Shown piece after piece: positions 3,602 through 35,326 of a DNA stretch of 49,208 bases; positions within the stretch are counted from its first letter, which is position 1, and each line of letters starts with the position of its first letter. This stretch comes from a virus: UHGV virus genome UHGV-0196072. One strand, written 5' to 3'. A model generated the notes under the pieces. That model was not told the DNA's origin, searched no databases, and saw nothing but the letters and a program-made list of their open reading frames with translations. Position numbers and translations under genes: made by a program.

Positions 3602-3620
3602 ATGTTAACGAAACGGAGGA

Positions 3621-5712: not shown

Positions 5713-5905
5713 GTCTTTTTCCTGTTCAAACGGTATGACATACAGATAACTCTGGTTGCTAACGTCATCAAGAAGTAATTGCAGAAGGCATAAAAAAACC
5801 CCGCCTAAGCGAGGTTATTTATAAATATGGAAGAATATCAAATTACCCTAAAATATCGCTCATTTTGTTGCATTTTGCAAGCCAGTTTGACGAAGATAGC
5901 CAACT

Positions 5906-16589: not shown

Positions 16590-16591
16590 CC

Positions 16592-17915: not shown

Positions 17916-17961
17916 CATGGGGTGTCGGGGGTCGGAGGTTCAAATCCTCTCGTGCCGACCA
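17916..17961 (+). tRNA. Not a gene: 46-nt 3'-terminal fragment of tRNA-Pro(GGG), proL-like (anticodon-stem 3' side through CCA). This is the phage attP core
   Basis: catggggtgtcgggggtcggaggttcaaatcctctcgtgccgacca matches the 3' part of enterobacterial proL. The upstream sequence is not tRNA. Lies between int and the tail-fibre gene. Confidence 0.7.
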
Positions 17962-18061: not shown

Positions 18062-19591
18062 CTAGGTGACAGGGCAACCTTCTGAAGTTACTGAATGTAC
18101 GTCTGTAGTTTGAACCAGCTTGTTCAAATCACGCACTTGTTTTGTTAACTCCTGCACTGACGAAACAAGATCAGCAATGATGGCTACATAGTCCACGTTC
18201 ATTACCTGAAACTTTTCCCCATCGATCTCCTGCTCGATGCCGAGGAAAGTATACAGATCGTCAGCTTTCTCAGCCTGCTGGGCGATAAAGCCACGCCTGC
18301 GGCGTGTTTCCCCCTTCATGTTAAACTCGCATACCCCTAGCGCATTAATGCGCCTGGAGGCCCCTTCCTGGGGTTCTGTAAATCCGTCTTTCAGACGAAC
18401 GTCAGAACCGGTAGTCATGACGTCGCCTTTAGGGGTGGAGATTGTCCCACCGGTGTAAAAGAGCCAGGCATCTTTTCTGTCAAAACCGTCCATATACAGT
18501 ACCACCCGGTGGTTGTACCCAACGTATTCTTCAAGGTAGAAACCACCCCACGCTCCGGAGGGGTCACCGTTACCGCCGCGTCCCAGCATTCTGGATCGAA
18601 TACGTCCGCCTGAAACCAACGAACCATCAGCAGGGGAACCAAAGTCTGTTCTGTTGGCCGAAAGGTCGACTCCGCATTGCGCCCACCCTCCAATATCTGC
18701 CATACCACCAACACGAAGATCCCTGTCAACTCGCCAATGACTACCTTGTACACTAATTTGATCGGCGGCAGTGGCCATAATCCGCCCGGTGAAGTCGTCG
18801 GTGCTGTAGTTAAAATGAAAGTCGATGTATGGCGTGCTAAATGACAGCTCAATCGCCTGGGTATACAGCAACCCCTTCGTCGTGTTGTCGATGTCGCCGC
18901 CGGCAGTCAGCGCGCCAGGTAGTGTCGTTCGGTTGTTGGCATCAATAACGAGGATGTCATCAAAGGTGTCTGCCGGTGATACAGTGGTCGCTCTTGAACG
19001 CTGAACCCTAAACGGTGTTCCCGAGCCAACGGCAATTGTCCCGCCTTGCCCCTGTTTTTTGAGCAGAGCCAGATCTGAGTTCTTACCGAGTATAAAACCG
19101 GCATTATCGCTGGTTATAACCTGCGAGCCGTCGAGTTTGTTTCCTCCGGTGAGTTTTGCCAGCGCGTTAAGATCCGAGGCCTTCGCCATCCCGGCTATCG
19201 CCGGCACGGTCACCTGCTTTCCTGTGATCGGGTCAGTCAGGGTGATATTGCCGCTGCCGGTCAGGGCCATCGACCAGCCCTCCACTACACTACGCCAGAA
19301 TGCAAACGCGCTGGCCAGCTGGTTAGCAAACGACGAGGTGCTGGCGGTTTCAGCGGTAATAATGCCGTAACTAGCACCGGAAAATGCGGTGGTGATATTC
19401 CTGGTCAGCGTCAGTTGCGTGTCGCTGTCCACGGATTTGATCGCATACAGGTCAGCACTACCGCTGCGGTAGACCACTAGAATCGACCCGGGCAGTATCC
19501 CCAGCGCCTCCTGTGACCATTTTGTTGTCGCACCTGTCACCCGTGCTTGCGACGCGGCACCCATGACGGTACCGACTTCATACATCGCCAT
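18062..19591 (-). CDS. side tail fibre protein with a C-terminal Peptidase_S74 intramolecular-chaperone autoprocessing domain
   Basis: 509 aa. Conserved S-D-x-R-x-K (SDVRLKDGF) and a C-terminal helical chaperone segment. No separate tfa gene follows. Confidence 0.65.
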   Translation of the reverse strand: MAMYEVGTVMGAASQARVTGATTKWSQEALGILPGSILVVYRSGSADLYAIKSVDSDTQLTLTRNITTAFSGASYGIITAETASTSSFANQLASAFAFWRSVVEGWSMALTGSGNITLTDPITGKQVTVPAIAGMAKASDLNALAKLTGGNKLDGSQVITSDNAGFILGKNSDLALLKKQGQGGTIAVGSGTPFRVQRSRATTVSPADTFDDILVIDANNRTTLPGALTAGGDIDNTTKGLLYTQAIELSFSTPYIDFHFNYSTDDFTGRIMATAADQISVQGSHWRVDRDLRVGGMADIGGWAQCGVDLSANRTDFGSPADGSLVSGGRIRSRMLGRGGNGDPSGAWGGFYLEEYVGYNHRVVLYMDGFDRKDAWLFYTGGTISTPKGDVMTTGSDVRLKDGFTEPQEGASRRINALGVCEFNMKGETRRRRGFIAQQAEKADDLYTFLGIEQEIDGEKFQVMNVDYVAIIADLVSSVQELTKQVRDLNKLVQTTDVHSVTSEGCPVT

Positions 19592-19768: not shown

Positions 19769-22700
19769 TTATTGTCCAAAGGAACCGTTATTGCTTCTGA
19801 ATGCTGTCACAACAATATTACCTACTGTAACTTCACTCTGCTGCGGTCCGTAGCTTGCACCAGTTAACGAGATGCCGATGCGGTTGTTACTTGCTGGGAT
19901 GTTAACAGTGAATGATTGTGGAATATCCACAAGGCCACCAGCTTTATCCCGCATATCAACAACGACACGTCTTTTACTCTGCACCCCATTAATATTGAAT
20001 GTCAGAACTACGTAAAAGTCGCTGCGCTGGTCTGTTACACCGCCACTATAGGAGTTGCATCGTACGGTACAGTTCAGCGTGATTGTCATCGGGTATCCAC
20101 TGTTCTGATACCATGCGTTCATAGTTCCAGAACCTTCACCGCCCTTAACCGTAAATCCGTTGAACGATGCAGAAGTTGCAATATCGCCTATAAAAGATTC
20201 AGCTTGCACCGTTCCCTTGAAAACACCGCTATTCGCCTCAACCCTGCCACGGACGATCACGTTATTGAACTGCGAAGAGCCATCCTTGGCGATACGCCAG
20301 CCTTGCGAGCCATCAACAAAGTTATTCGAGCGGATCTCGTTACCGATCTTCGCGTTCGTAATGGAACCGTCCGCGATTTTGGCAGAGGTCAGGGAACTGT
20401 TTTTGATACGTGCCGTATCGATATACAGCTCATTGCCTTCGGCAACCATCACCGGAACAGCCGTCGCATTATTACGGTTAAACAGCGAGAAGCGGTCAGC
20501 GTAGAGGATCATATCGCTTGTTTCACCATTGCTGCCCAGCGTAATCCCCGCGCCAACATTCTTCCCGTTAACCGTCTCAACCTTCATCGACCACAGCGAA
20601 CTCACCGTACCATTCACATCCGCCACGGTTTTGGCGGTGTTCTGAACGGAAGCGCTGAGATCCCCGACACTGGATGTCAGGGTCGTCTGCTGCGTTGCCA
20701 GCGCCTCCAGTGCCGTTGCATGCGTCTGCTGGGTACTGGTGATACTGGCCACCGATTTAATCGTGTTGTCCAGCGTCGTCTGGTTTTTGATGTTGGCGGC
20801 CGCCTGCGCGTCAATCTGCGACTGAAGCGAGGTATTCAGGCTGGCCTGTGTGCTCTGGCTGTCGCTTAGCGTCTTCGCCATGTTATCGACGCGGGAGTTG
20901 GCATTATCCACTTTCGTGGCCAGTGCCGTCTGCTGCTGCGCCTGGGCGGTGATTTTCCCTTCGGCATCCGTTACGCGAGCCGTCAGACCGCTCACGGCAC
21001 TCGCCGTCGCGTCAGAGGCATCCTGTGCAGCTTTCGCATCGGTAACATCCGTGATGACCAGATCGTCGAGATACAGTGAATAGCCAGGGGTACCGTTGCC
21101 GGTGGCGCCACGGGTGGAGATCCAGACCACCGCGCGTGTTCTGCCCGCCCCGTTGTTACTGGCGATACCCGTAAATTTCACCCATTTATCGCGCGCGCCC
21201 AGAGAGGCTTCGCTGACAGTGACCGCCGCCTGCCAGGCATTTTGCCCGGCAGCATTCTGCGACTGGATACCGACCAGCGTCGTCCACCCGGAGGAGGGCG
21301 CCTGATCCGCCGGCATCATGGCCCAGAACTCAAACCGGAACTTCGCGTCCTCACGGACTGACTGCCAGGTGCCAAGCTGTTTATCGCTGTTGCCGCCGTT
21401 GTTCTCATCCCGTCTCAACTTCAGGCTCTTATCGCCGGTGAATTTCTGAGACGCTACCACAACGGCGGTACCGCTCCCGCCCAGCACCTGGCCATCGCTG
21501 TAGCTTTCAAATGTACCGTCAACCCACGGATTAGCTCCCTGAGTGCGGATGGTATTGATGGTGCTGGTCAGCGACGTGATGCTCTGCGACTGGCTGGTGA
21601 TGGTGTTTTCCACCTGGCTGACGCGACCGGTCAGTGAACTCACCGCGGACGTGTCAGCCTTTTTCCCCAGCTCCGTATTCATCGTGGTCAGGCTGTTCTG
21701 CAGACTGGTGAGCTGCTGCGACTGCGAATCCAGTTTACCCTCAGCAGACGTCATCCGGGTGGTCAACCCGGTGACAGCGCTTTGCTCAGCCTTCTTACTG
21801 ACCGCCGCATTCGTGACGGCCAGATCGCCGCTGAGTTTCGTCAGCTGCTGCGCCTGGGTGGTGATAGCCCCTTCCGCAGCGGTGACGCGGGTATTCATCT
21901 GAGAGATGGCCCCGGCGTTAGCCGCGATATCCTTTTCATCCGTAACATCGAGAACATGGAAATCATCGAAATACATGGCCCCCGCGCTGAGGAAGGTCGT
22001 CAGCTGGAAACTGGCCGTCGTGGTCTTCGTGGCTTTCCAGTCAAACGTTACCAGTTGCCAGCCAGAACTAAACGGTCCGTAGTTTGAGCCGACCAGCGGG
22101 CCAGTGCTGTCAGCCACACGAAACTTCGTGTTACCCGCATCTTTAATCGTGGTCCCCGGGTCCTGCTTCGCCCATACCCCCATGCGGTAGGTACGGCCCT
22201 GCGTGATACTGATTTCCTGTCCGACCAGGTTCGACTGGCCGGCGGACATTTTCAGCGCCTTGTTACCCGAGTGCGGAACCTGTAAATCGGCCACCGTCGC
22301 GGTACTGCTCCAGCCGGTAAAGCCCGCCGCACCGCGCTCAAAACTGCCGTTGACAATGAGGTTGCCCGGCATTTTCCCGCTGGCGTCAATATCCGCTGCC
22401 GTCTGGCTCAGGCTGTTACTCAGTTGCGTCAGAGAATCCCCCTGCGCACTGAGTGTTTTGCCCTGCTCAGTGACCTGGTTCTGCAGGGTGTTCATCGCGC
22501 TTGCGTCCGCTTTTTTGTTCACATTCGCATTCGTCGTGGCCAGATCGCTGCTGAGTTTTGTCAGCGCGCTGTTGGCTGCCGCGATGTCATTCCCCTGCTG
22601 CGTCACCGTGCCCTGCAGCTGCGTCACCGCTGTCGTGTCAGCCTTTTTACTCACCGTATCGTTTGTCGACCGGAGGCTGTTCTCCAGCGAGGTGGTCCGC

Positions 22701-25700
22701 GTGCCGATGCTGCTGAGCGTATCGCCCTGCTGGCTAACCGTGGTGGTCAGTGAATCCACCGCTTTTGCGGTCGCATCTGCGGTTTTCTGCGCACTGTTCG
22801 CCGCCGTCACGTTACGCATATGCCAGTCGGCAGCGTACCAGACAGTGCCGAACGGGCTGCTCTGATTAACCTGCAGGAACGGTCGCAGGAAGTTCGTGTC
22901 TGCCGGCACAGTAAAGCGCCAGGTGGCTCGTTTCCACGCGGTGGTGGTCTTGGTGTTTCCCCCGGACGCTCTCGCCCCAATACCACCAGTAGCAGTGGTG
23001 GCACTACCGATGTAGAAATTAAAGTCAGCGCTGCCGGTACCACACGCTACCAGAGCAGACATTTCGTAAACGTCGCCCGGCGTCACGGCGATGTTGTTGA
23101 TTTTTGGCACATGGTCTCGCCAGGCCAGCCGGACGGCATACCTGAACGGGCAGTCAGCCGGCACACCATCGGCGGTGGTCTCCACCACGTCATAACCCAT
23201 GCGGTCATACGCCGGATCAAATGACGGGTTTGGAATGTAATCATCCCCGGCAGCATTCCCGGCATTCACCGCCGCCGTCAGGCTGACGATGTTGCTGTTG
23301 GCTGCCGTGAGGCCTGCCTCGGTTTTCTCAACCCGGCCAGTCAGCGCGTTAAGCGCCGTCTGATCCGCTTTGGTGTTGACCTTATCGGTGGTGCTGCTCA
23401 AATCGCCCTGCAGCTTCGTGATAGCCTGCCCCTGGGAGGTGATTTTGCCTTCCGCACTGGTGACCCGGCTGGTGAGATCACTCACCGACTGCGCGCTGGC
23501 CTTTTGTGCCACGTTGTTGTTGGTGGTGTTCAGGCTGTTCTGCAGATTCGTGATGCTCTGAGACTGCGCGGTCAGCTGCCCCTCGGCATTCGTCACCCGA
23601 CTGGTGAGGCTGTTAATGGCCGAGGTGTTCGCGGTAATACCGCTGGCTGCATCATCCGGACTCGGTGACCAGTCGGTCATCACGGTCCCGGTTTCCAGCT
23701 GAGGGCGGCAGAGCCAGACTTCTTTGTCGGCAGACGTCGCGCTTTCCAGACGCGCGGCAATCAGCCGTTTGGTGCCACTGGTGGCAGGAATAACCCATTT
23801 CACCCAGTAACGCGCCCATGCGGTGGTCAGTTTCGTGACCGCCTTGCCGTCACCGGCCCCGCCTTTAACGCCCTGGCTGGTTTCCGTGGTGGTGGTGTTC
23901 GACGGGTTATAGAAATAACTCGCCATCTCCTGCCCGTCATAAGCCCCTTTCGCATAGAAGCTGAATACAAATTCCGTACGCCCGGTAACATCCAGCATCT
24001 GTTCATCCAGCTGGATATAACCGGATGCACCTTTCGCCAGCCGGGTGTAGGCCACGCGGTCGCCCAGATACGTCTCTGTGGCGTGGCGGCTGCTCCATCC
24101 CTCCAGTGTGTCCGCATTGCGGATAAGGTTGGTCCCGCCAACGGCCAGGGAGGAAAAGTTGTTTTCCAGGTTCGTCAGCGCGCTGCTTTGCGCGGTCAGA
24201 TCCCTGCCATGCTGTTCAACGGTGTTCTGCAGGCTCTGCAGCGCCGTTGCATCAGCCTTCTTCGCCACATTGCTGTTAGTCGTGTTCAGGCTGTTCTGCA
24301 GGCTGGTCAGGCTGTCTCCCTGCGATTTCAGGCTGCCTTCGGTAGCCGTCACGCGGGTCGTCAGATTCGTCAGCGCGCTGGCATCGGCCTTGCCGCTGAT
24401 ATCCTTACCAAGTTGCGTCACATCCGACTGCAGCTTCGTGATCGCGCTGCCCTGAGACGTAATATTCTTCCCGTTCTGCGTGACTGACGCGGACAGACTG
24501 GAAAGCGCCTGCGCATTCGCATCGGCGGCATCGAGCGCCGCTTTCGCATCGGTCACGTCAGTGATGATCAGATCATCAATCAGGAAGGCGTCACCCAGGC
24601 GAACTTTTGGTGTATTCGGGATGGAGATCCTCACCATTGCCTGTTTCAGTGCGGTTCGGTTGTTGGTCAGATAGCCACTGACTTTTGTCCAGTTGTCCAC
24701 CGACAACTCGGAGACTTTCACGTTCAGGCCAGGCCACGACCAGCCATTGGCTGAATCCTGGAAGGAAAATCCGAGTACCATATAAACGGTCGGATCGGCG
24801 GTCGAGCCAGCCGGCAACTTAACCCACGCCTCCACGTAATAGACCGCGTTATCGCGAACCTGCATGCCTGAAAAGATATGGGTATCGTTATTATCCGTCG
24901 CGTTCGGGTTGTACTCCGTACTGCGCGTAACACGCAGGCTTTTGGTCCCGCTGTGAGCAGCTTCACTGGTGATAACGGCGCGGGCATTACTGAGAACATC
25001 GCCGACGGCATAGGATTCAAAACTGCCGTCCGGCAGTACGTTGGCTCCCCGTGTCGCCTGCTGCTTCAGCGATGTATTCAGGCTGGTCAGGCTGTCGGCC
25101 TGGCTACGGATATCCTTTTCAGTCTGGGTAACCCGGTTGGTCAGTGAACTGACCGCCGACGCATCAGCCTTCTTCGCCACATCGCCTTTGACCCCTTCCA
25201 GCGCGTTATTCAGCGCCGTGATGGATTGCCCCTGTGATGTCAGGGTGTTCCCCTGGTTCGTCACCGTCCCGGTCAGAGACGAAACAGCATCGCTGGTCGC
25301 CTTGATGTTGGTTTCATCGGTGATATCAAAAACCCGGACGGAATCGAGCCAGATTTCACCGTTTGTCGGATGAGAATAAAGTTTGAAGTTCTGCCCGTCC
25401 GCGCCGGCAGCCGTCAATCCGGTTTCCCAGGTGATGGTTTGCCAGTCAGTGGTCAGCGTGACCGTTTTATCCTCATACGTGCTATCCGTCTGGCCAATTT
25501 TGTTCTGGCGACGGATCAGCAGACTCATCGCTCCGGAAACACCTTTGGCCTTCACCACCACCCGGTACTTGCGCTGGCCATTCAGCGGCACCGGCTTGTT
25601 GTTGTTGGAGAAAATTCCTGGGCTGATAGTGGTCGTCCGGTTCAGCCGGACCCCCGCTTTCCCGTCCCCGAAATCGCCAAAGGTCACACCGGCTGGATAC

Positions 25701-28700
25701 TGAATATCCCAGGCAGTGCTGCCCTGCAGAAAATCAAAGTTCGGGATCAGGTTGTCGCCGGCGTTGCGGGTGGCCGTCAGCACATTCGCCAGATTTGTCA
25801 GCTGCTGGCTCTGTGTGGTCAGTTTCCCTTCCGCCTCTGTCACCCGGTTATCGACCGAAGTCAGTGCCGTGGCATCGGCCTTCTTCGACACATTGCTGTT
25901 GGTCGTGTTCAGGCTGTTCTGCAGGTTCGTCAGCTGCTGGCTTTGTGAGGTGATGGCCCCTTCCGCTGTGCTGACCCGGCTCGTCAGTCCGGTAACGGCG
26001 CCGGCGGTGGCATCGATGTCCACCCGGTCGGTAACGTCAGTGACGTAAAAATCATCGAAGTAGCGGCTGCCGCTAATCAGATAGTTGCTCAGCGTCACCG
26101 GCAGGCTGGCTGTCTCCGTCGCTTTCCAGCGACCGGAAACCAGGGTCCAGTTTGTCCCCACCGTGCCGCTGTTGTACGGACGCTCAAAGACCGGCTGGCC
26201 GGCAGAGTTACCGATCCGCAACTTGTTGTTCCCCGCGCCATTATCCGTCGTCGCTCCGGGTTCCTTGACCCACACCCCGATTTCATAGGTTCGCCCCTGA
26301 ACAAACGGGATGTATTGCCCCGGAGACACGCTCCCCGGATCAACCTTCAGCGCCCGCGTCCCGCTGTGAGGAGCGGAAACCTCCACCACACTGGTCGCGG
26401 TTGACCGCCCGGTATAACCATCCAGCCCGCGTTCAAATGAGGGATTCACGACCAGGTTACCCGGTATCTGACCGCTGGCATCGATATCTGCCGCAACTTG
26501 CGAGAGACTGTTCGACAGATTCGTCAGCGAATTGCTCTGGCTCTCCAGCGTTTTACCCTGCTGCGTCACTTTCGTGTCGAGCGTGGCCAGCGCAGTCGCA
26601 TCGGCTTTCTGCGCCAGCGCTTTATCGGTATTCGCCAGATTTCCGGTCAGTTTCGTGATGGCGCTGTTCGCAGCAGTCAGATCGTTGCCCAGCTGTGTGA
26701 CGGTATTGGTCAAATCCTGCACCGCTGTCGCATCAGCCTTTTTGGCCACTGCGGCATTGGTGGTGGCCAGCCCGTTTTCCAGCTGGGTTGTCCGGTTGCC
26801 GGTCGAGGTCAGCAGATTACCCTGTTGCGTCACGGTGGTGGTCAGCGAGTCAACCGCCGCCGCCGTGGCATCCGCAGTATCCTGAACCTTTTGCGCCGCT
26901 GTCACATTTCGCATATGCCAGTCCGTAACGAACCATACGGTGCCATACGGGCTGTTCTGCGAGATCTGCAGGAACGGGCGGATATAACCCCTGTCTACCA
27001 TCGCCTGCGTGACCTTGAAGCGCCAGGTGGTTCTCTGCCAGGTCGCAGAAGGTGATTTTCCGCCCCCCGCCATGAGTGGCGCACCGGTGCTCGTATCTGG
27101 CCGAACGGCGGTGCCAACATACAGATTAAAATTCGCCGTGCCAGCGCCGCAGGCAACCAGTGCGCTGATCTCAATCACATCGTTAAGCGTGGCCGGGAAC
27201 GCGGCAAAGTTAGGATGGTGATCCCGACTGGCAATTCTGGCCGCATAACCATACGGGCAGCCAGGAGGGACCTCCTCAGCCGTCGTGGATACGACGCTAA
27301 ACCCCATCTGGTCGTAAGCCGGGTCAAATGTCGGGTTGGGAATTAAATCTCCGCCTGATGCGTTTCCGGCCCGTACAGCGGATTTCAGCGAGGTAATGTT
27401 GGCGTTAGCAGCCGTCAGCCCGGATTCCGTCTTCTCCACTCGTCCGGTTAGCGAGTTCATCGCCGTCTGATCCGCTTTGCTGGCCACGTTCGCGTCTGTC
27501 TGCGTCAGCGCATTCCGGAGTTGGGTGATGCTCTGCGAATTGCTGACCACATCATTGCCAATCTGGCTGACATTCGAGCTGAGTACGCCGGCTGCGTTTG
27601 CCAGCGCGGAAACCCCGAGACCGGAGTACATCTCAGCAACCTTGTCTGACAGCTTCAGGCCCAGGTTGATATACGCCTGGCCGGTCCACTGATTCACCAG
27701 AAACTCAACGGTGTTCCAGCCGACTTTCAGTTCAAAACTGACGGTATTCCTGCTGGCGTTACCCCAGGCGACCTGAACCCCATTCACAAATATGGCGCCG
27801 GTATCATCAAAAACCCTGGCGCCGGGCGCCAGTGTGATGGTGGTATCTGCGGCCACTTTCACCTGGCAGGAATACAGCGCGATCAGATAGCTGCCGGCGG
27901 ACGTAAAGTCCAGTTTGGCCGCGTCGGCCACCTCATCCACTACCGTTGGTGCCACAGCGCGAACATCGCTGAATGACGGGACTGTCCCGGCGTTAGCCAG
28001 CTGCACCGGATAGATCCGACGGGACCAGCGATTCGGCTGGCCATTGACCAGTTGATTCGACAGGCTGGTGATGCTGTCAGTATTGCTGCGAATATCCCGC
28101 CCGTTTTGCTCTACCTGCTGCGTTAAGGCAGTGACCGCAGCCGCTTCAGCTTTCTTCGCCAGCGCGGAATTTGTCGTGCCCAAATCGCTCGTCAGTTTCG
28201 TGATGGACTGACCCTGGCTGGTTATCCTGTCGCCCTGCTGGGTAACAACAGACTGCAGCCCGCTCAGTGCCTCATTCGTACCAGCCAGGCCCGTTTCCGT
28301 CTGGCCAACCCGGTTAGTGAGCGATGTTAACGCGGCGCCCTGCGATGTCAGCGTGGCGCCCTGTTGCTCAACTTTCTGCGTCAGGGACGTCAGCGCGGCT
28401 GCATCGGCTTTTTTCCCGAGGCTGGTTTCCAGGCCACCGATACGGCTCGCCTGCGCGCTCTGCTCTGTCGTCAGAGAACTCAGTTCACCAGAAACAGCAG
28501 CTTTGTTGTCGTTAAACTGCGTCTGCAGGGACTCTCTGGCCTTAACTTCCGCCGAGATGGCGGTAACGCGCGCGGTTTTTTCCTGGTACAGCAGCCCGGA
28601 GGTGACTTTCTCCAGATCGTTCCCATCATAGGAGCCACGCATCTGCGCCGCCAGCGTGCTGCGTGCCTGCGCTTCGGCGGTCAGCGCGTTACTCAGCGTG

Positions 28701-31700
28701 CTGCGCACATCCTGCAGAGCCGCCGTACTGGCGCCGGGTGCTGGCCGGCCAACGGCGATCCAGTCGAATTCGATAAAGTTGCTGGCATCCTGCTGGTTCG
28801 TCAGGTCCAGGCGAATACGATCAATGTTCCCTGTCCACGGAATATCACGCACCGTCAGGGTTGCCACCCCATCGGCATACTCCGGCTCAGCAACAATGTA
28901 TCGCTTCGTGTTAGTGAAGTTTTCGCCGGCAGACACCCAGCGGATCTCACCCGCCCAGACTGGTTTGCCGGTTTTACGAAAGCGCAGCATGATGAAACGG
29001 TACGCCGCACCATCGACAGCCAGCCCGCCAGGAGAGGTAATGTACGGATCGGTGGCGCTGTCCGCCGGGCGTAACCAGCCATCCTGTGACACACCCGGTA
29101 CGCCGGCGCTGCCGGTCCAGCCCTCGGTCGTCTGATTGTTGAAATGCCAGATAACCTGCGAATCGAACTGGATATTAGCGCCGGCAGCGAGGCTGGACAT
29201 TTCCCGCGCCAGATTTTCATCGGCGGTCTTCATCACCTGAGTCAGGCTCTCGATACTCGCCTCAATCCCCTGCGTTGCCGCCAGCAGTTCATCAGCGGCC
29301 TGTGACGCCTTCGCGTTAACATCGGCAATACGATCCGCGGTCTCCTGCTTCACCGCATTGGTCAGCGTGGTGTTGACCTGAGACAGCGACTGCTTCAGGC
29401 CATTTTCAGCAGTCTTTATCTGCGCATTCAATGCGGCATCGCCGTCGGCCAGCGTTTTGCTGACCCTGGCAATCTCCAGGTCGATGGTGGCGTTGATTTC
29501 CGCAGCCGTATCGGTGACTGACTGTCTTACCTGGGTGATGCTGTCGGTCAGCGACTTGTTCACAGTTGCGATCTGCTTGTTCGCATCTGCGACGGCGGAT
29601 TTTGCCTCCTGAACGCCTTTGTTTGCCTGAGCCAGACCAGAATCGAGAGCCTCATTGACCGAGGTGATCTCATCCGTGATGGTTTTATTCACGGCGGAGA
29701 TCTTCCCGTCAACATCAGCCGTGATGCTTTTCGCCGATGCATCAATATCCTGGCTGACCTGCTTCGCCTGGTCTTCGGCTTCCTTACGCAGAGCTTCAGC
29801 GGTCTGCTCCAGTTCCTGCTGCGTATTGCGGATACCTTCCTGTGTTTCGCTAATGGTGCGCTGCGTTTCCTCCCAGGCAGCCGTATCCTTGATCGCGTCG
29901 GTCAGGTTTTCGTAGTAGTCATCAAAGTTATCGCTGGCCATCCCCTGGACCCAGCCGGTCCACGGGCTTTCATTGCCAAGACGATCCACAAGGCGCGCCC
30001 GGTACCAGAATTCGGCGCCCATACTGAGGCCCATCTGCTGATAGCTTTTCCCCGGATAGGCTACGTCTGATAACGGCATTGGCGCACTGCCGTCCTGGTT
30101 TTTGCTGTACTGCAGTTCCGTGCGCAGCGTATCCCCGGAGCCGGTCGGGAACTCCCAGCTAACCTGGACCCCATGAACCAGCGAACGGGTTGCCAGCGCC
30201 AGCGGTGCCAGCGGCTCGCCGACCTTGCCGGTCAGGGTTTTCTCTTCGGAATACGCCCAGCCGCTCGAGATCTCCGCCGCATTGATCGCACGGACGCGAA
30301 CCAGGTAACGACCGGCATAAATGCCGCTGACCTCAAACGAGGTGGTCGAGCTGCGCGGAACATTAATCCAGTTCCCGTCGTTACGGCGCCACTGCGCCTC
30401 GTAGGCAATAGCGCCGCTGACCGCTGACCAGTTAACCTGCATCGTTTCGACGCTGATCCCCTGATTCACGACCGAGCGGGATGTGATGACAATATCGTCA
30501 GGAGGTGACTGGTTGCCCGCCGGCAATACGCTAACCGGGCGCTGATCGATAATCGCGCCGGTATCGATGCGGGCGAATTTATCCGGGTCATGTGACACGC
30601 CGGTGATCGTGAGGGTGGCATCGCCGTTCTCTTTTACCCCTGTGACCCGGTACTGCTGCAGAAAGAGGTCATTAGATTCTACGGCCCAGACGCATTCCCG
30701 TTCTGGCGTCTCACTGTACGCCGTTGTGACCGTAATCTGCCGGCGTCCGTTAACGGCCTGGATGGTCCGGCTCTGTGAGATCCCGGATGGCAGGTTTAGC
30801 TGGAGGCGGTCGCCAGGTTTGGCATCCACATCACGATCCAGCGTAATCACCCGGCCATTCACCGCGCTGATCCGCCCGCCGTTGACCCGTCCGGCCAGCA
30901 ACTCATCCGCCAGGGCAATGATATAACCGGGTTGAGGAATGCGACCGTCCAGCCCCACATCAAACTCAACGACCCGGTCTTTGTTGTTGGTCAGTATGCC
31001 CCACAGCCCCTTACGGTGGGCTTCGCTCTGGCGCGTACAGCCAATCGCGGTCAGTTCGAGCTGGTTAAAACTGTAGCGGGAAACCAGTTCCGGGATAAAC
31101 GCCGGCTCCATCGCATCAGCATAAGCATTATCCGGATCAGACCAGGAAACCAGGGCGTTGGTGTACCGAACCTGGCTGCTGCTGCTCGAATAACGGGGTT
31201 TGCCGACAATATTGGCGCGCGTATAGGTAAAATCGACATCACGCGGCATATCAGCCTGCACAACAATCTGCTCACCGTTCCAGCAGGTCATGCCCCGGAA
31301 AATGGCGGCAAAGTCTCGCAGCACAGTGTAAGCATCGTTGCGTTCCTGGACATAGACGTTACAGGTATAGCGAGGCTCCATGCCATCACCACCGCGCCCG
31401 TCAGGAACCAGCTGATCGCAATACTGTGCAATCTGGTACAACGTCCATTTGGAGATATTCGCGCTGGTCAGACGATCGCCAAGACCGAAACGATCAGAGA
31501 CAACAATGTCGTAATAAATCCATGCCGGGTTATCAGTCCATGCCCATTTGAAGCCCCCTGTCCATGTGCCGGTATATTCGCGCGTTTCCGGGTTGTAGTT
31601 ATCCGGGACACGGATAACACGCCCACGCGGCTCGCAGGAGATTTGCGGGATGGAACCATTGAACTGGCTGGAGTCGAATTCGATGTACAGCAGCGCGGTG

Positions 31701-32368
31701 TGTGGGTAACGCAGCTTCGCGTCAATAACCTCGGTGTAGCTCTGCAGCGTCATTACGTCGCCGATTTTCACGCTGTTCGCGTCCGGCGATACCTTGCGAA
31801 GACGCAGCGTCCAGGTGCTGCCTGCCTGCGGTAAATCGATGCGGTGGCTACGTTCATACCCGGAAGTAGTTTTGCCGGAGACGGCGGTCTCGAGTACGGT
31901 CTGCCAGGCTCCGCCATCCGTCTGTAAATCGATGGCGTATTTAACGGTATTCCCCACCACATCGCCGTCATCTTCCTGCTTCATCAGGGAGGGCCATTTC
32001 AGGCGGACGCGAACGGCAGAAAGTTGGGTATTCGTAAACGTGTGGGTCCAGGCGGTCTGGCTGGAAACTTCCGTCCCTACCGAAATTTCATTTTCAGTAC
32101 CTGGAATACCCTGAATATAACTTTGTGCCTGCGTCCCAGGTCGGAATTCCCAGGCCACACCACTGAAGTTTTGCGAACCATCGGCATTCTCAAGAGGGGT
32201 ACCGTCGAGATAAATATCTTTCCCGGTTAAACCACCAGCAAACTCCCCCTCACCCAATGCGATAAGAATTTTGGCTTTTGCTACAGACTGTAAATCGTCC
32301 GGCTGTTCCGTGGGCGTACGCTGTTTAGAGCTGCCACCCTTACGCCCTTTAATGATGTTATTTGCCAT
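19769..32368 (-). CDS. J: Giant central tail-fibre / host-specificity protein J (4199 aa). Architecture: lambda-J N-terminal region, about 3000 aa of inserted beta-sandwich (CBM-like) modules separated by fibrous repeats, then a lambda-J-like C-terminal receptor-binding region
   Basis: Single uninterrupted ORF. Residues 1-830 are collinear with lambda J (e.g. KTTSGYERSH, YTGTWTGGFK). Residues 3921-4199 parallel the lambda J C-terminus. Sits between gpI and the side tail fibre. Confidence 0.9.
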   Translation of the reverse strand: MANNIIKGRKGGSSKQRTPTEQPDDLQSVAKAKILIALGEGEFAGGLTGKDIYLDGTPLENADGSQNFSGVAWEFRPGTQAQSYIQGIPGTENEISVGTEVSSQTAWTHTFTNTQLSAVRVRLKWPSLMKQEDDGDVVGNTVKYAIDLQTDGGAWQTVLETAVSGKTTSGYERSHRIDLPQAGSTWTLRLRKVSPDANSVKIGDVMTLQSYTEVIDAKLRYPHTALLYIEFDSSQFNGSIPQISCEPRGRVIRVPDNYNPETREYTGTWTGGFKWAWTDNPAWIYYDIVVSDRFGLGDRLTSANISKWTLYQIAQYCDQLVPDGRGGDGMEPRYTCNVYVQERNDAYTVLRDFAAIFRGMTCWNGEQIVVQADMPRDVDFTYTRANIVGKPRYSSSSSQVRYTNALVSWSDPDNAYADAMEPAFIPELVSRYSFNQLELTAIGCTRQSEAHRKGLWGILTNNKDRVVEFDVGLDGRIPQPGYIIALADELLAGRVNGGRISAVNGRVITLDRDVDAKPGDRLQLNLPSGISQSRTIQAVNGRRQITVTTAYSETPERECVWAVESNDLFLQQYRVTGVKENGDATLTITGVSHDPDKFARIDTGAIIDQRPVSVLPAGNQSPPDDIVITSRSVVNQGISVETMQVNWSAVSGAIAYEAQWRRNDGNWINVPRSSTTSFEVSGIYAGRYLVRVRAINAAEISSGWAYSEEKTLTGKVGEPLAPLALATRSLVHGVQVSWEFPTGSGDTLRTELQYSKNQDGSAPMPLSDVAYPGKSYQQMGLSMGAEFWYRARLVDRLGNESPWTGWVQGMASDNFDDYYENLTDAIKDTAAWEETQRTISETQEGIRNTQQELEQTAEALRKEAEDQAKQVSQDIDASAKSITADVDGKISAVNKTITDEITSVNEALDSGLAQANKGVQEAKSAVADANKQIATVNKSLTDSITQVRQSVTDTAAEINATIDLEIARVSKTLADGDAALNAQIKTAENGLKQSLSQVNTTLTNAVKQETADRIADVNAKASQAADELLAATQGIEASIESLTQVMKTADENLAREMSSLAAGANIQFDSQVIWHFNNQTTEGWTGSAGVPGVSQDGWLRPADSATDPYITSPGGLAVDGAAYRFIMLRFRKTGKPVWAGEIRWVSAGENFTNTKRYIVAEPEYADGVATLTVRDIPWTGNIDRIRLDLTNQQDASNFIEFDWIAVGRPAPGASTAALQDVRSTLSNALTAEAQARSTLAAQMRGSYDGNDLEKVTSGLLYQEKTARVTAISAEVKARESLQTQFNDNKAAVSGELSSLTTEQSAQASRIGGLETSLGKKADAAALTSLTQKVEQQGATLTSQGAALTSLTNRVGQTETGLAGTNEALSGLQSVVTQQGDRITSQGQSITKLTSDLGTTNSALAKKAEAAAVTALTQQVEQNGRDIRSNTDSITSLSNQLVNGQPNRWSRRIYPVQLANAGTVPSFSDVRAVAPTVVDEVADAAKLDFTSAGSYLIALYSCQVKVAADTTITLAPGARVFDDTGAIFVNGVQVAWGNASRNTVSFELKVGWNTVEFLVNQWTGQAYINLGLKLSDKVAEMYSGLGVSALANAAGVLSSNVSQIGNDVVSNSQSITQLRNALTQTDANVASKADQTAMNSLTGRVEKTESGLTAANANITSLKSAVRAGNASGGDLIPNPTFDPAYDQMGFSVVSTTAEEVPPGCPYGYAARIASRDHHPNFAAFPATLNDVIEISALVACGAGTANFNLYVGTAVRPDTSTGAPLMAGGGKSPSATWQRTTWRFKVTQAMVDRGYIRPFLQISQNSPYGTVWFVTDWHMRNVTAAQKVQDTADATAAAVDSLTTTVTQQGNLLTSTGNRTTQLENGLATTNAAVAKKADATAVQDLTNTVTQLGNDLTAANSAITKLTGNLANTDKALAQKADATALATLDTKVTQQGKTLESQSNSLTNLSNSLSQVAADIDASGQIPGNLVVNPSFERGLDGYTGRSTATSVVEVSAPHSGTRALKVDPGSVSPGQYIPFVQGRTYEIGVWVKEPGATTDNGAGNNKLRIGNSAGQPVFERPYNSGTVGTNWTLVSGRWKATETASLPVTLSNYLISGSRYFDDFYVTDVTDRVDIDATAGAVTGLTSRVSTAEGAITSQSQQLTNLQNSLNTTNSNVSKKADATALTSVDNRVTEAEGKLTTQSQQLTNLANVLTATRNAGDNLIPNFDFLQGSTAWDIQYPAGVTFGDFGDGKAGVRLNRTTTISPGIFSNNNKPVPLNGQRKYRVVVKAKGVSGAMSLLIRRQNKIGQTDSTYEDKTVTLTTDWQTITWETGLTAAGADGQNFKLYSHPTNGEIWLDSVRVFDITDETNIKATSDAVSSLTGTVTNQGNTLTSQGQSITALNNALEGVKGDVAKKADASAVSSLTNRVTQTEKDIRSQADSLTSLNTSLKQQATRGANVLPDGSFESYAVGDVLSNARAVITSEAAHSGTKSLRVTRSTEYNPNATDNNDTHIFSGMQVRDNAVYYVEAWVKLPAGSTADPTVYMVLGFSFQDSANGWSWPGLNVKVSELSVDNWTKVSGYLTNNRTALKQAMVRISIPNTPKVRLGDAFLIDDLIITDVTDAKAALDAADANAQALSSLSASVTQNGKNITSQGSAITKLQSDVTQLGKDISGKADASALTNLTTRVTATEGSLKSQGDSLTSLQNSLNTTNSNVAKKADATALQSLQNTVEQHGRDLTAQSSALTNLENNFSSLAVGGTNLIRNADTLEGWSSRHATETYLGDRVAYTRLAKGASGYIQLDEQMLDVTGRTEFVFSFYAKGAYDGQEMASYFYNPSNTTTTETSQGVKGGAGDGKAVTKLTTAWARYWVKWVIPATSGTKRLIAARLESATSADKEVWLCRPQLETGTVMTDWSPSPDDAASGITANTSAINSLTSRVTNAEGQLTAQSQSITNLQNSLNTTNNNVAQKASAQSVSDLTSRVTSAEGKITSQGQAITKLQGDLSSTTDKVNTKADQTALNALTGRVEKTEAGLTAANSNIVSLTAAVNAGNAAGDDYIPNPSFDPAYDRMGYDVVETTADGVPADCPFRYAVRLAWRDHVPKINNIAVTPGDVYEMSALVACGTGSADFNFYIGSATTATGGIGARASGGNTKTTTAWKRATWRFTVPADTNFLRPFLQVNQSSPFGTVWYAADWHMRNVTAANSAQKTADATAKAVDSLTTTVSQQGDTLSSIGTRTTSLENSLRSTNDTVSKKADTTAVTQLQGTVTQQGNDIAAANSALTKLSSDLATTNANVNKKADASAMNTLQNQVTEQGKTLSAQGDSLTQLSNSLSQTAADIDASGKMPGNLIVNGSFERGAAGFTGWSSTATVADLQVPHSGNKALKMSAGQSNLVGQEISITQGRTYRMGVWAKQDPGTTIKDAGNTKFRVADSTGPLVGSNYGPFSSGWQLVTFDWKATKTTTASFQLTTFLSAGAMYFDDFHVLDVTDEKDIAANAGAISQMNTRVTAAEGAITTQAQQLTKLSGDLAVTNAAVSKKAEQSAVTGLTTRMTSAEGKLDSQSQQLTSLQNSLTTMNTELGKKADTSAVSSLTGRVSQVENTITSQSQSITSLTSTINTIRTQGANPWVDGTFESYSDGQVLGGSGTAVVVASQKFTGDKSLKLRRDENNGGNSDKQLGTWQSVREDAKFRFEFWAMMPADQAPSSGWTTLVGIQSQNAAGQNAWQAAVTVSEASLGARDKWVKFTGIASNNGAGRTRAVVWISTRGATGNGTPGYSLYLDDLVITDVTDAKAAQDASDATASAVSGLTARVTDAEGKITAQAQQQTALATKVDNANSRVDNMAKTLSDSQSTQASLNTSLQSQIDAQAAANIKNQTTLDNTIKSVASITSTQQTHATALEALATQQTTLTSSVGDLSASVQNTAKTVADVNGTVSSLWSMKVETVNGKNVGAGITLGSNGETSDMILYADRFSLFNRNNATAVPVMVAEGNELYIDTARIKNSSLTSAKIADGSITNAKIGNEIRSNNFVDGSQGWRIAKDGSSQFNNVIVRGRVEANSGVFKGTVQAESFIGDIATSASFNGFTVKGGEGSGTMNAWYQNSGYPMTITLNCTVRCNSYSGGVTDQRSDFYVVLTFNINGVQSKRRVVVDMRDKAGGLVDIPQSFTVNIPASNNRIGISLTGASYGPQQSEVTVGNIVVTAFRSNNGSFGQ
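21938..23248 (-). repeat. J internal module pair A'-linker-B' (aa 3041-3477), diverged duplicate of the A-B unit at an exact 4101-nt offset
   Basis: Module A' begins DDYIPNPSFDPAYDRMGY. Module B' begins GNLIVNGSFERGAAGFTG. Collinear, at about half identity by eye, through the domains and the intervening fibrous linker. Confidence 0.8.
26024..27349 (-). repeat. J internal module pair A-linker-B (aa 1674-2115), first copy
   Basis: Module A begins GDLIPNPTFDPAYDQMGF. Module B begins GNLVVNPSFERGLDGYTG. Confidence 0.8.
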
Positions 32369-32433: not shown

Positions 32434-33024
32434 TTATTGCTGGTCTTCGACATAAATACCGGCGGAAATAATCGCGCCGCCAATTCGTCGTTTGCCGTAA
32501 AGAAGGCCAACCGGGTAGCCCTGCGAGGCGGTATTGGTTACGCCGCCAAAGGCATAGCTGGCTTTATTGTCGGAGGATTCTTTACGGGCAAGGCCACCGG
32601 GCTGAGGAGAGAGCATCTGGATCACGCCTCCAAGCATCATTGATGCGCCCATACTATAAAGATATGGTGCGGCCGCAGCAGCGGGAGTGAATGTGGAAAT
32701 GAACCCCGCGACCACAAGCACTGCCCCGAGAATTGTTTGTAAGATGCCAGCCTTTTTACTACCAATGACTACAGGGACGATGCGGATAACCTCTCCACTT
32801 ACAGGGAATCCTAAATCATCCTCACTAATATTTTTCTTCCCTTTGAATACAGCAAAGGTTAATCCTTTTTCTTTGCTGTTATTCATGAATTTTTCAAATC
32901 CCGGAATTGTTGCGGATAATGCTGCTCCAGCCTCATGAACAGTCGAAATCAATCGATGATGAACATTCCCAAAGGTTTTACCAAGGACTCCAGAAAGTTC
33001 GATTTTTGTCATTATTTCCTGCAT
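32434..33024 (-). CDS. I: tail assembly protein I
   Basis: 196 aa. C-terminal Gly/Ala-rich hydrophobic segment as in lambda gpI. GGAG RBS. Confidence 0.8.
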   Translation of the reverse strand: MQEIMTKIELSGVLGKTFGNVHHRLISTVHEAGAALSATIPGFEKFMNNSKEKGLTFAVFKGKKNISEDDLGFPVSGEVIRIVPVVIGSKKAGILQTILGAVLVVAGFISTFTPAAAAAPYLYSMGASMMLGGVIQMLSPQPGGLARKESSDNKASYAFGGVTNTASQGYPVGLLYGKRRIGGAIISAGIYVEDQQ

Positions 33025-33050
33025 AACAACTCCAGTTAGTGAAAAAAAGT

Positions 33051-33473
33051 TTAATTAATGGTTGTCGGCCTTATATCCACATTTGCATTAGAATCCGTAA
33101 ATATTCTTACTACTTTCCTCTCCCCAGCTTTCACAATGAATATTCGCTCTTGCCGCTCAGGGCTCAAACTACATAATCCTTTCCCTGTCAGATTAGCACC
33201 AACAGCCCACTCCCCTTCAGATATATAAAAAGTAGCCTTTTCTTTAGGGTTCAGTTTTGCCACTTGCTCCCCATTTAAATAAACCGCTGCATAGCATCCG
33301 GACCCAACTATTCCCGCATCGCGAATGATAGTCAGAGCTGTATTATTACCAGCATTTATTTGATATTTAAAAACCCTTTCCTTTGGGGCAGAAATCGCTT
33401 TACTTGGAGGTACTACAGTACTTGCACACCCAGTTATAGATAAAATCATTAATGCCAACGCTATTTTTTTCAT
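33051..33473 (-). CDS. moron lipoprotein (140 aa; signal peptide plus lipobox LSITGC) inserted between tail genes K and I
   Basis: MKKIALALMILSITGC start. AAGGGA RBS. Visibly lower GC than the flanking tail genes. Absent at this junction in lambda. The ORF is open to 33521. Confidence 0.6.
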   Translation of the reverse strand: MKKIALALMILSITGCASTVVPPSKAISAPKERVFKYQINAGNNTALTIIRDAGIVGSGCYAAVYLNGEQVAKLNPKEKATFYISEGEWAVGANLTGKGLCSLSPERQERIFIVKAGERKVVRIFTDSNANVDIRPTTIN

Positions 33474-33514
33474 CTCGGTGTCCCTTCTGTCTTTAGTTAA
33501 AATTCCATAAAAGA

Positions 33515-34225
33515 TTAACACAGAGAATGATATCGGACGATTTTCATCGTCCTGTCTAACCAGTATCCACCATACGGCACGCGCTGACTGAGATGACCAT
33601 AAAGGTGGTGTAGCAACATGTTACCTTCCAGCAGGATCCCGGCATGATTCCACTTGTCCGACTGCACCTGCATGATCACCATATCACCCGGTTGCGGTGG
33701 ACCATCAAATTCACGAAACCCGCATTCATACCAGCAATCGTGGTAGAAGTTTTCGGGATAGTCGTTTTCCCACCAGGGGTAATCAACGCGGTAATCGTGC
33801 AGCTCGATGCCGTGAGTCTGCCGGAAATAGCTCATTACCAGCCCCCAGCAATCATAATGGCCAAGTACGAACGGGCGCTCAAGGAGAGGCAGTTCACCGC
33901 GGGGATGGATAGTCCGAAAATCCCCCTCCGGCCAGCTGATAATATGCCACGGGAGCAGCGTTGCATCGCACTGTGCCTTATCCAGTTCGCTGGGTTGCGT
34001 GGTCGCATCAGGATGGCTGTGAACAATGCCGATGATCGTTCCCCAGTCCTCTACCGCGGCGTAATCCTCCGGTGCCAGTACGAAATTATCATTCGACTCG
34101 CTGGCCATATTTCTGCAGGGGAAATAGCGCTCCACTCGCCCCTTTTGAGCAATCAAGCCGCAAGCCTCACGCGGGTATTCAGCTGCAGCATGAACCTGTA
34201 TCGCCTCAATCGTTTTCTGGCGCAT
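33515..34225 (-). CDS. K: tail tip protein K (MPN/JAB plus NlpC/P60 domains)
   Basis: HSHP JAB motif. Cys/His NlpC-like residues. Collinear with lambda gpK. Confidence 0.85.
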   Translation of the reverse strand: MRQKTIEAIQVHAAAEYPREACGLIAQKGRVERYFPCRNMASESNDNFVLAPEDYAAVEDWGTIIGIVHSHPDATTQPSELDKAQCDATLLPWHIISWPEGDFRTIHPRGELPLLERPFVLGHYDCWGLVMSYFRQTHGIELHDYRVDYPWWENDYPENFYHDCWYECGFREFDGPPQPGDMVIMQVQSDKWNHAGILLEGNMLLHHLYGHLSQRVPYGGYWLDRTMKIVRYHSLC

Positions 34226-34226
34226 A

Positions 34227-34982: not shown

Positions 34983-35326
34983 GGTACGAATGCCTGTTCA
35001 AATGTTGCGGTGACTGTCATGACTTTGCTATTCAGAATGGCTTTTTGCAGGCTGTCAGCCTGAACCCGCCATAGCGCTAACTCGTCATACGGTGGTTTAA
35101 AGGCAAAGGATTTAGTTTTATGCCGTCGCAGGAATTTATAAATATCCAGGCCGGTTTGCAGATCTCCGGTAAATGAAAATGCATAATTTAAGGTTTCCGG
35201 GTTTATTCCCTCCCCTGAAACCTGCGCATATCCATCGCCAAATTGCGCCTTGCGAATATTATCCTTACTCGTTGTCGCTGGCTGACTGGCGGCCTGAATT
35301 CGCCAGGAAAATGTTTCAATAGTCAT
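34979..35326 (-). CDS. M: minor tail protein M
   Basis: 115 aa, in the lambda gpM position. Confidence 0.8.
   Translation of the reverse strand: MTIETFSWRIQAASQPATTSKDNIRKAQFGDGYAQVSGEGINPETLNYAFSFTGDLQTGLDIYKFLRRHKTKSFAFKPPYDELALWRVQADSLQKAILNSKVMTVTATFEQAFVP

Follow-up and report, generated by a model that had tools for sequence, protein, structure and literature searches.

The UHGV virus genome UHGV-0196072 was analyzed over its whole length of 49,208 nt, referred to here as the window, and the element under study is a giant gene of the lambda J (TipJ) family, located on the minus strand at 19769..32368. From the list of open reading frames (ORFs) and the translation, the gene starts with ATG, comprises 4,199 codons and encodes a product of 446.6 kDa. 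It is free of internal stop codons and covers 12,600 of the 49,208 nt, or 25.6% of the window, in agreement with the original prediction of a single uninterrupted 4,199-aa ORF filling a quarter of the genome. The whole protein matched phrog_2589, annotated as 'tail protein', with 5,180 bits (profile length 3,686), and a Pfam scan over its full length returned FNIII-A_GpJ, Phage-tail_3, fn3 and Phage_Tail_Tip. An integrase is encoded at 16586–17779, and the window phage is of the lambda/Gifsy-like temperate type, not of the protelomerase type; the source is a lambda-like, integrase-encoding temperate Klebsiella siphophage.

For segmentation of the protein, stretches of at least 45 residues devoid of W, F, Y, P, C and H were defined as fibrous segments. 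This divided the giant J into a core (residues 1–832), 11 fibrous segments (1,508 residues in all), ten modules, a tail-tip domain and a distal tip of ~130 residues, and the J-type central tail fiber with a large modular insert that had been predicted is what emerged. The individual features, in the order in which they occur along the protein, are as follows.

29873..32368 (-), residues 1–832: N-terminal core of J, made up of the tail-tip cone and fibronectin type III (FNIII) domains, from Pfam and PDB sequence matches
29168..29872 (-), residues 833–1067: first helical rod, free of W/F/Y/P/C/H, hydrophobic periodicity z = 21
20723..28513 (-), span of ten linker rods rich in T/A/S/L/Q/N and interleaved with the modules, from segmentation: rods 1–5 at residues 1286–1444, 1582–1676, 1819–1968, 2109–2208 and 2348–2445, and rods 6–10 at residues 2596–2719, 2905–3043, 3184–3333, 3472–3613 and 3767–3882
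28514..29167 (-), residues 1068–1285: module b1, a beta sandwich (1068–1209) followed by a helix in the AlphaFold2 model
27626..28036 (-), residues 1445–1581: module b2, all-beta, with AlphaFold2 strands at 1447–1582 and a predicted local distance difference test score (pLDDT) of mostly 55–82
26915..27340 (-), residues 1677–1818: module A, with A' as its paralogue, related by hhalign to the B family
26045..26464 (-), residues 1969–2108: module B, CBM_4_9 (PF02018, 37.8 bits)
25328..25744 (-), residues 2209–2347: module C, borderline CBM_4_9 (PF02018, 27.0 bits)
24584..25033 (-), residues 2446–2595: module D, borderline CBM_4_9 (PF02018, 26.0 bits)
23657..24211 (-), residues 2720–2904: module E, of the gene transfer agent (GTA) head-spike-fiber type (NCBIfam NF048003)
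22820..23239 (-), residues 3044–3183: module A', ~55% identical to A, with a weak PF02018 match (16.1 bits)
21956..22369 (-), residues 3334–3471: module B', CBM_4_9 (PF02018, 40.9 bits; sequence match to PDB 2zez)
21071..21529 (-), residues 3614–3766: module D', a paralogue of D (36% identical)
20165..20722 (-), residues 3883–4068: tail-tip fiber (central straight fiber) domain, Pfam Phage_Tail_Tip
19772..20164 (-), residues 4069–4199: distal tip, a presumed receptor-binding domain and exchangeable cassette, from comparison with relatives

The frame of the protein is that of lambda gpJ (1,132 aa; 8iyk, 8xcj), with which it shares two collinear parts (lambda residues 1–841 and 842–1002) and the flanking M-L-K-I genes. 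Residues 4–841 of lambda J (PDB 8iyk_J) aligned with residues 12–845 of the giant J (E = 1e-122), and Pfam placed FNIII-A_GpJ (residues 91–217, 163 bits), Phage-tail_3 (342–503, 47.9 bits) and fn3 (638–698, 26.1 bits) in the core, which bears out the predicted N-terminal collinearity with the tip-attachment and FN3 region of gpJ. Residues 842–1002 of lambda J (8iyk/8xcj) aligned with residues 3905–4068 of the giant J, in the domain that matched PF09327 (Phage_Tail_Tip, DUF1983) with 123.9 bits. Since the two alignments abut at lambda J 841/842, the giant J can be described as lambda J into which 3,059 residues have been inserted at one site. In contrast to lambda gpJ, the distal ~130 residues are unrelated to the LamB-binding domain; structure-sequence alignment detected no similarity between them and the lambda J C-terminus. 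The proposal that the last ~280 residues parallel the receptor-binding region of lambda J hence does not hold for that region as a whole: residues 3905–4068 parallel the central straight fiber, and the remainder has no such counterpart. The NCBIfam model NF049904 (lambda_TipJ) was scanned against the C-terminal 317 residues only and gave 47.8 bits, its whole-protein cut-off being 1,950 bits. Its 3,059-residue insert and unrelated distal tip suggest that the giant J belongs to the J family without being an equivalog of lambda J.

Among solved structures, the core was matched best by the F2-pyocin fiber 25vf (E = 3e-281), followed by the J-like gp24 (23gd, E = 1e-212), and 9l9p was matched as well. 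In both 25vf and 23gd, J homologues of normal size (~1,150–1,200 aa), the alignment begins ahead of the tail-tip domain and runs through it, and the part ahead of the domain matched the last linker of the giant J. Compared with these two proteins, the giant J has the core-to-tail-tip stretch expanded ~20-fold and broken up by ten beta modules; the insert looks like an enlarged form of this connecting stretch. By analogy with the solved lambda and F2-pyocin assemblies, three copies per virion would form the tip cone and the central fiber.

The insert opens with the 235-residue helical segment that the original prediction had noted (residues 833–1067). This first rod is charged and rich in E/K/Q/D, unlike the later linkers, and its matches to helical families were weak; 11 extra residues were seen in it in NAR688 and in a contig labelled Limoniibacter endophyticus. 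The ten later rods are the predicted fibrous repeat linkers that separate the modules; they measure 95–150 residues and are built from a 44-residue (132-nt) unit, the DNA repeats being spaced by 132 nt. The consensus of the unit is KADATAxxxLTxRVTQxExxLTSQxxxLTSLxNxL, with hydrophobic positions spaced 3-4-7. Hydrophobic periodicity of 3.3–3.7 residues was significant in all 11 fibrous segments (z = 3.5–21; 3.5–11.4 for the ten later rods) and in none of the ten modules, significance meaning that the observed value was reached by at most 4 of 500 shuffles. The AlphaFold2 monomer model was helical at residues 1215–1440. Among the linkers, residues 2904–3037 matched the sequence of the tail needle gp26 (4lin) and residues 3540–3609 that of reovirus sigma-1, both of which are trimeric coiled coils; a Pfam match to SlyX was sub-threshold. 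We infer that the linkers are trimeric coiled-coil rods. Their length is polymorphic, NAR688 and the Limoniibacter endophyticus-labelled contig having ~88 extra residues, equal to two 44-residue units, before module E (24212–24583).

As predicted, two beta-rich domains precede eight further modules: the former were recovered as AlphaFold2 strands at residues 1068–1209 and 1447–1582, and the latter (A–E, A', B' and D') by segmentation and internal paralogy. Module identity was assessed with PF02018 (CBM_4_9, a carbohydrate-binding module [CBM] family; gathering cut-off 25.9 bits), which was passed by B, C, D and B' and not by A, A', D', E, b1 and b2. Module B in addition matched the sequences of 2zew, 2zex and 2zey, described as family 16 CBMs. 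Pfam gave no match on module A itself; however, hhalign related the A family to the B family (probability 78%, E = 1.8e-5), and B to D (probability 75%), such that A/A' and D' are linked to the CBM_4_9 modules indirectly, via profile or paralogy. NCBIfam had nothing for most modules. Module E matched NF048003 (GTA_spike_fiber) with 43.7 bits (cut-off 36) over profile positions 6–170 of 182. The predicted CBM_4_9 identity therefore applies above the cut-off to four modules and by indirect routes to three more, E being of the GTA spike-fiber type. Taken together, these matches support an assignment of several modules as CBM_4_9-type, carbohydrate-binding-like beta sandwiches.

Chunked self-BLAST revealed how the modules are related to each other. 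Residues 1588–2198 corresponded to residues 2957–3561 (~610 residues, 50–63% identity by chunk), representing a duplication of A-B as A'-B', and residues 2401–2630 corresponded to residues 3571–3800 (36% identity), representing D and D'. The start motif N-P-[ST]-F-[DE], claimed earlier as a signature of several modules, was found in six of the eight (A, B, D, A', B' and D') and is missing from C and E. A second motif, DDxxxTDVTD, had been read as a conserved hinge closing every module; it closes B, D, B' and D', is degenerate in C and is absent from A, A' and E, that is, it occurs in only 4–5 of the eight. The closing strand of CBM4/9-type domains carries a comparable 'DD'. Because the motif lies at the C-terminal edge of the modules, and the CBM_4_9 match stops just 17 (D) and 5 (B') positions short of the profile end, it probably corresponds to this last strand of the CBM fold, and the hinge reading was rejected.

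Structure prediction had been proposed as a check on the fold of the modules; it was applied to b1 with b2 and to E. In the model of b1 and b2 combined (pLDDT 71; mostly 82–93 in the beta part of b1, residues 1068–1209), Foldseek found jelly rolls of the CBM type, namely CBM22, CBM86, CBM6, CBM35 and CBM16, together with PA14 adhesins, at E ~1e-4 and target TM-scores of 0.45–0.63, values that do not distinguish whether b1 or b2 was the matched half. By Pfam, b2 reached 21.8 bits against Cadherin-like, below the cut-off of 24.2. When the b1-b2 model was compared with the viral library BFVD, the matches were to a 'trimeric coiled-coil fiber' and to minor tail proteins, in which a coiled coil is combined with beta sandwiches. 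The check was less telling for module E, the CBM matches of which were weak.

Comparison with known systems brought out both likenesses and differences. The CBM_4_9 CBMs (for instance the family 16 CBMs 2zez/2zew, from an S-layer-associated multidomain endoglucanase) share their family with B, C, D and B', as well as the N-terminal 'NPSFE' and C-terminal 'DD' motifs, but the modules of the giant J are embedded between the helical rods of a viral fiber and not appended to a glycoside hydrolase. The likeness of module E to the head spike fiber of the Rhodobacter capsulatus GTA (RcGTA) is confined to one domain of ~160 residues, and that fiber sits on the GTA head, whereas module E lies in a central tail fiber; the RcGTA head spike fiber binds capsular polysaccharide (PMC10218006). 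In overall design, the closest counterparts were actinophage minor tail or central fiber proteins (such as mycobacteriophage Douge gp20, 8zdp), in which rods alternate with beta sandwiches as in the giant J. These bead-on-a-string fibers were the top structural matches in both PDB and BFVD; no sequence relationship to them was detected, and the giant J is far longer and has far more modules. Trimeric autotransporter adhesins are further trimeric fibers of the bead-on-a-string kind.

Several lines of evidence demonstrate that the ORF is a real, intact gene under selection. Two public contigs assembled independently of each other, one an ENA metagenome scaffold and the other a Logan contig, encode the same 4,199-aa product, identical throughout, and uninterrupted orthologues of 3,433–4,333 aa are present in at least seven other records. 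The internal DNA repeats of the gene are only 60–75% identical to each other, none is both long and exact, and a scan with Tandem Repeats Finder gave no genuine tandem array at the DNA level; the concern about mis-assembled repeats that accompanied the original prediction was thereby answered. Against three collinear relatives, dN/dS was 0.03–0.17 in core, linkers, modules and tail-tip domain alike (~0.1 in the modules), which shows that purifying selection acts on every segment class. The synonymous divergence (dS) varies ten-fold along the gene and is 0.33 in D' versus 0.03 in the linkers.

The view that no lambdoid J of this size and architecture had been described did not stand, and giant J homologues were indeed found in Klebsiella phages, phage-plasmids and prophages, the last being among the places where the original prediction had suggested looking for them. 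One point of reference is gp21 of phiKO2 (3,433 aa), for which the evidence consists of the GenBank annotation, 'similar to lambda J', and one paper, which reported ~4,200-aa gp21 homologues in two K. pneumoniae prophages among the eleven prophages examined in detail (PMC7784688). The J proteins of other relatives measure 4,294 aa (NAR688), 4,234 aa (020009, ST846-OXA48phi9.1 and K. pneumoniae ATCC 13883) and 3,792 aa (KpLi5). The central 3.9 kb of the gene occurs in 164 Klebsiella plasmid records, 158 of them at least 95% identical and most being non-mobilizable replicons of ~51–57 kb; a 12.7-kb gene on one 'E. coli' plasmid has the RefSeq name 'gpJ: TipJ family phage tail tip protein'. Fragments go under the NCBI names 'carbohydrate binding domain-containing protein' and 'phage tail tip fiber protein', and some plasmid records annotate the gene as 'Chromosome partition protein Smc'. 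In short-read Klebsiella assemblies, the gene is usually shattered, with hundreds of members per cluster of partial proteins. Homology searches returned proteins of ~1,070 aa at most, the majority being fragments from the ends of contigs. A literature search on gpJ, DUF1983 or the central fiber in combination with Klebsiella brought up no paper in which the giant-J architecture is dissected or its function tested. The giant J of the phiKO2-gp21 lineage (PHROG 2589) is thus a known, widespread and under-studied kind, with near-identical genes in well over a hundred genomes of Klebsiella phages and phage-plasmids in public databases.

Farther afield, the E-type domain had 613 cluster representatives, many in proteins of 1–4.8 thousand residues. 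Among the best 150 representatives, ten were at least 3,000 aa long, the largest being a 4,797-aa protein with FNIII-A_GpJ, ILEI, CBM_4_9 and Phage_Tail_Tip domains. Relatives of 2,430–2,516 aa were found in Pseudomonas genomes, and a single-protein scan otherwise yielded close relatives and a few J-like genes of Pseudomonas and Stenotrophomonas.

Among the relatives, phiKO2 gp21 and its kin resemble the window J in gene position, J core, alternation of linkers and modules, and tail-tip domain. 020009, ST846-OXA48phi9.1, NAR688 and ATCC 13883 share all ten modules and their order with the window J, segment-wise identity being mostly 96–100%; D' was the most variable module (89% in three of these). 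Module identity remained at 94–100% (D' 89–99%) across phages of K. pneumoniae, K. quasipneumoniae, K. variicola and K. michiganensis. Modular variation was also seen: KpLi5 lacks C and D, phiKO2 gp21 has seven modules in a different order and with 40–69% identity, and the ~88 residues added in NAR688 correspond to two 44-residue units. We infer from these sequences that modules and 44-residue units may be gained, lost and swapped by recombination between similar linkers. The 52-kb Limoniibacter endophyticus-labelled contig (J of 4,333 aa) is 99% identical to the Klebsiella phage gene of the window, and pieces with 99% identity occur in assemblies labelled Microbacterium barkeri (698 nt) and Paraburkholderia phenoliruptrix (384 nt); all three matches are probably due to assembly contamination.

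Where the window protein departs from the phiKO2-type relatives is at its very end, and only the last ~150 residues are distinctive. The distal tip had no match in ST846phi9.1, 020009, ATCC 13883 or KpLi5 and was 37% identical to that of NAR688. The last 160 residues (19772–20251) were instead 86–94% identical to the J tips of Klebsiella phages of ~46–50 kb, among them vB_KpnS_Haden_MM8, vB_Kp3 and Sin4, which we take to be virulent weberviruses. Since this tip is shared with the ~46–50-kb phages and lacks a counterpart in otherwise near-identical giant J proteins, it represents a swap of the tip between phage groups. Apart from its distal tip and its phage backbone, the window gene adds little to its relatives and is a variant of a known giant J.

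A second element of interest lies directly downstream of the J gene.

18062..19591 (-), separate 509-aa tail fiber with a C-terminal intramolecular chaperone (phrog_1980; Peptidase_S74 at residues 396–443)

This gene is kept downstream of the giant J in ST846phi9.1, KpLi5 and 48ST307. Its product was 94–96% identical to those of 020009 and ST846phi9.1 over the N-terminal two-thirds and 80–83% identical in the C-terminal part, which appears to be a second variable specificity element beside J. The presence of a separate fiber gene led us to reject the proposal that the giant J replaces a side-fiber repertoire.

We regard the giant J as a long, trimeric, non-enzymatic central fiber that would bind polysaccharide and carry an exchangeable tip, a reading drawn from sequence and structural models to which we assign a probability of roughly 60%. 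The lambda-J core would build the trimeric tail-tip cone, and the three chains would continue into one long coiled-coil stalk of at most ~224 nm when fully extended (1,508 residues at 0.1485 nm). At ten nodes, the stalk would open into three lectin-like domains each, amounting to ~30 per virion, which would attach reversibly to surface polysaccharide (of the capsule, O-antigen or matrix) and leave it uncleaved. Such binding would capture the cell and lead the distal tip across the thick capsule of Klebsiella, after which the exchangeable last ~130–150 residues would engage the final receptor, with a signal passing to the J core as in lambda. Of the multivalent glycan-binding 'mega-J' envisaged originally, the architecture and the CBM-type modules were recovered, and glycan binding by the modules is suggested by their fold and family membership. 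Induced Klebsiella prophages were reported to need the capsule and to have no recognizable depolymerases (PMC7784688), and NAR688 virions were described as having long fibers at the tail, in the form of a 'central tail spike and multiple long tail fibers' (PMC12042878). The J of NAR688 is one of the giant proteins listed above. Both observations fit a multivalent binding fiber.

A number of points weigh against this reading. The electron microscopy wording for NAR688 does not obviously describe a single central fiber of at least 200 nm. The binding role, for every member of the giant-J family, and the oligomeric state and extended length are predictions. The AlphaFold2 helices are interrupted every 30–70 residues, so that the rods could fold back and the fiber could be much shorter. 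As for the modules, C and D exceed the CBM_4_9 cut-off by just 0.1–1.1 bits, hhalign found no link from E, b1, b2 or C to other module families, and the all-beta model of E (pLDDT 59) gave weak Foldseek matches (E >= 1.2e-3) to CBM4-2, CBM22 and CBM16. The near-invariance of the modules across host species furthermore argues against a role as capsule-serotype determinant, which we rejected; what does vary among relatives is the distal tip, along with the C-terminal part of the 509-aa fiber encoded downstream. Probably, either any ligand of the modules is a conserved one or the modules are structural.

That last possibility leads to an account in which the insert would be a structural spacer only, giving the tip the reach to pass a thick capsule and arrive at the outer membrane, with the modules as inert knobs or stabilizing nodes. 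It would explain why modules and linkers are almost invariant in phages of several Klebsiella species while the distal tip is swapped, and it agrees with the change of linker length in whole 44-residue units and with the fact that the CBM family cut-off was reached by only four of the ten modules. Yet the modules are under purifying selection (dN/dS ~0.1) with several distinct module families retained, CBM_4_9 and GTA spike-fiber domains belong to families associated with polysaccharide binding for which a pure spacer has no need, and natural variants differ in module content and not in length alone. We therefore consider a spacer function on its own unlikely.

It could also be argued that the modules bind glycans other than those of the host, such as gut mucin or biofilm matrix, and retain virions there in the 'adherence to mucus' manner of Hoc/Ig-like domains. 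CBM_4_9-type domains bind diverse glycans, the conservation of the modules is high irrespective of host species, and the exact protein comes from a metagenome assembly. The location of the modules speaks against such a role, as they are found not on the capsid but in the infection-critical central fiber, between the tip cone and the receptor-binding tip. Moreover, the closest functional analogue of module E, the RcGTA spike fiber, binds the capsule of its own host, and the induced prophages mentioned above require the host capsule (PMC7784688). Retention on mucus or matrix is accordingly an improbable function.

A hidden depolymerase activity in one or more modules, which would make the giant J an unusual enzymatic tail fiber, was given still less credence and rejected as very improbable. 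It was raised by a sub-threshold match of module D to Polysacc_lyase-like, a Cip1-like core (17.6 bits, cut-off 27), and by the occurrence of tailspike and arabinanase chains among the weak fold matches of E. Whole-protein and per-module Pfam and NCBIfam scans, however, returned no catalytic family (beta-helix, hydrolase, lyase or SGNH) above threshold, no beta-helix was seen, and the plaques of induced Klebsiella prophages, including carriers of gp21 homologues, were without depolymerase halos (PMC7784688). Finally, an assembly artefact or decaying pseudogene, as might be suspected from the frequent fragmentation of the gene in short-read Klebsiella assemblies (hundreds of 'partial' proteins on 1–3-kb contigs) and from frameshifted versions in two published relatives, 48ST307 and Kpn74, is effectively refuted by the divergence of the repeats, the identical ORF in two independent assemblies, the collinear intact orthologues in complete genomes and plasmids, and the dN/dS values.

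Returning to the polysaccharide-binding central fiber, its implications can be extended. The authors of the prophage study stated as an open question by what mechanism depolymerase-less temperate Klebsiella phages require the capsule (PMC7784688). As a tentative proposal, which we would put well short of an even chance, the giant J may be a non-enzymatic answer to this capsule dependence: a trimer of ~200 nm with ~30 lectin domains that would bind capsule or O-polysaccharide multivalently, the virion being threaded or ratcheted through the capsule in this way and the exchangeable distal tip brought to an outer-membrane receptor. Gain and loss of modules by recombination of the 44-residue linkers would, in that case, tune reach and avidity. 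A widespread and conserved J with CBM-type and GTA-spike-type domains on a long stalk is at any rate a testable candidate for capsule engagement without cleavage, and its swappable distal tip makes it a natural scaffold of interest for host-range engineering. A recent structural survey of Klebsiella receptor-binding proteins left out the central fibers, as they could not be modelled. The window gene in particular illustrates a distal tip held in common with ~46–50-kb Klebsiella phages such as vB_Kp3 and Sin4.

Upstream of the J gene, the tail-tip assembly genes occupy 32434..35326 (-) and were identified by phrog_32, phrog_890 and Pfam searches on an identical contig (Phage_min_tail, Phage_tail_L and Prok-JAB/NLPC_P60).

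32434–33024 (-), gene I
33051–33521 (-), lipoprotein moron of 156 aa (phrog_890)
33515–34225 (-), gene K
34227–34982 (-), gene L
34979–35326 (-), gene M
35377–38547, tape measure

The resulting order is tape measure-M-L-K-lipoprotein-I-J-fiber, the tail genes upstream of J being of the lambda type. The 156-aa lipoprotein is situated between K and I, the position of the 'putative moron' gp19 of phiKO2, and could be a superinfection-exclusion or surface-modifying moron.

The relationships of the window phage change within this region. The I-J-fiber block (33024–20208, then 19647 onward) was 94–96% identical to the telomere phage-plasmids 020009 and ST846-OXA48phi9.1, the adjoining K/L/M genes were only ~79% identical to the telomere phages, and the remaining genome resembles integrative lambda/Gifsy-like phages. 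The step from ~96% to ~79% identity and the ten-fold variation of dS along J together indicate that the cassette has moved between phage lineages. The window gene hence exemplifies exchange of an I-J-fiber cassette between telomere phage-plasmids and integrative lambda-like phages: its backbone is integrase-bearing and lambda/Gifsy-like, with insertion at tRNA-Pro, whereas the relatives are protelomerase phage-plasmids.

Identity between the ENA scaffold and the window is 100% from 35368 down to 17916, beyond which the scaffold carries host DNA. The breakpoint lies inside a tRNA-Pro(GGG) gene (scaffold 17408–17484), with a sulfatase-family gene beyond it. At the same point, the window and the Logan contig have the integrase instead of host DNA, so that the window appears to show a prophage in its excised or circular state, with tRNA-Pro as the integration site and the att core near 17916–17961. 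Elsewhere in the window, a dense block of DNA-modification genes adjoins the replication initiator at 4322–10294 (-) and comprises three DNA methyltransferase-like ORFs, an HNH endonuclease and a PAPS-reductase-like/methyltransferase ORF.

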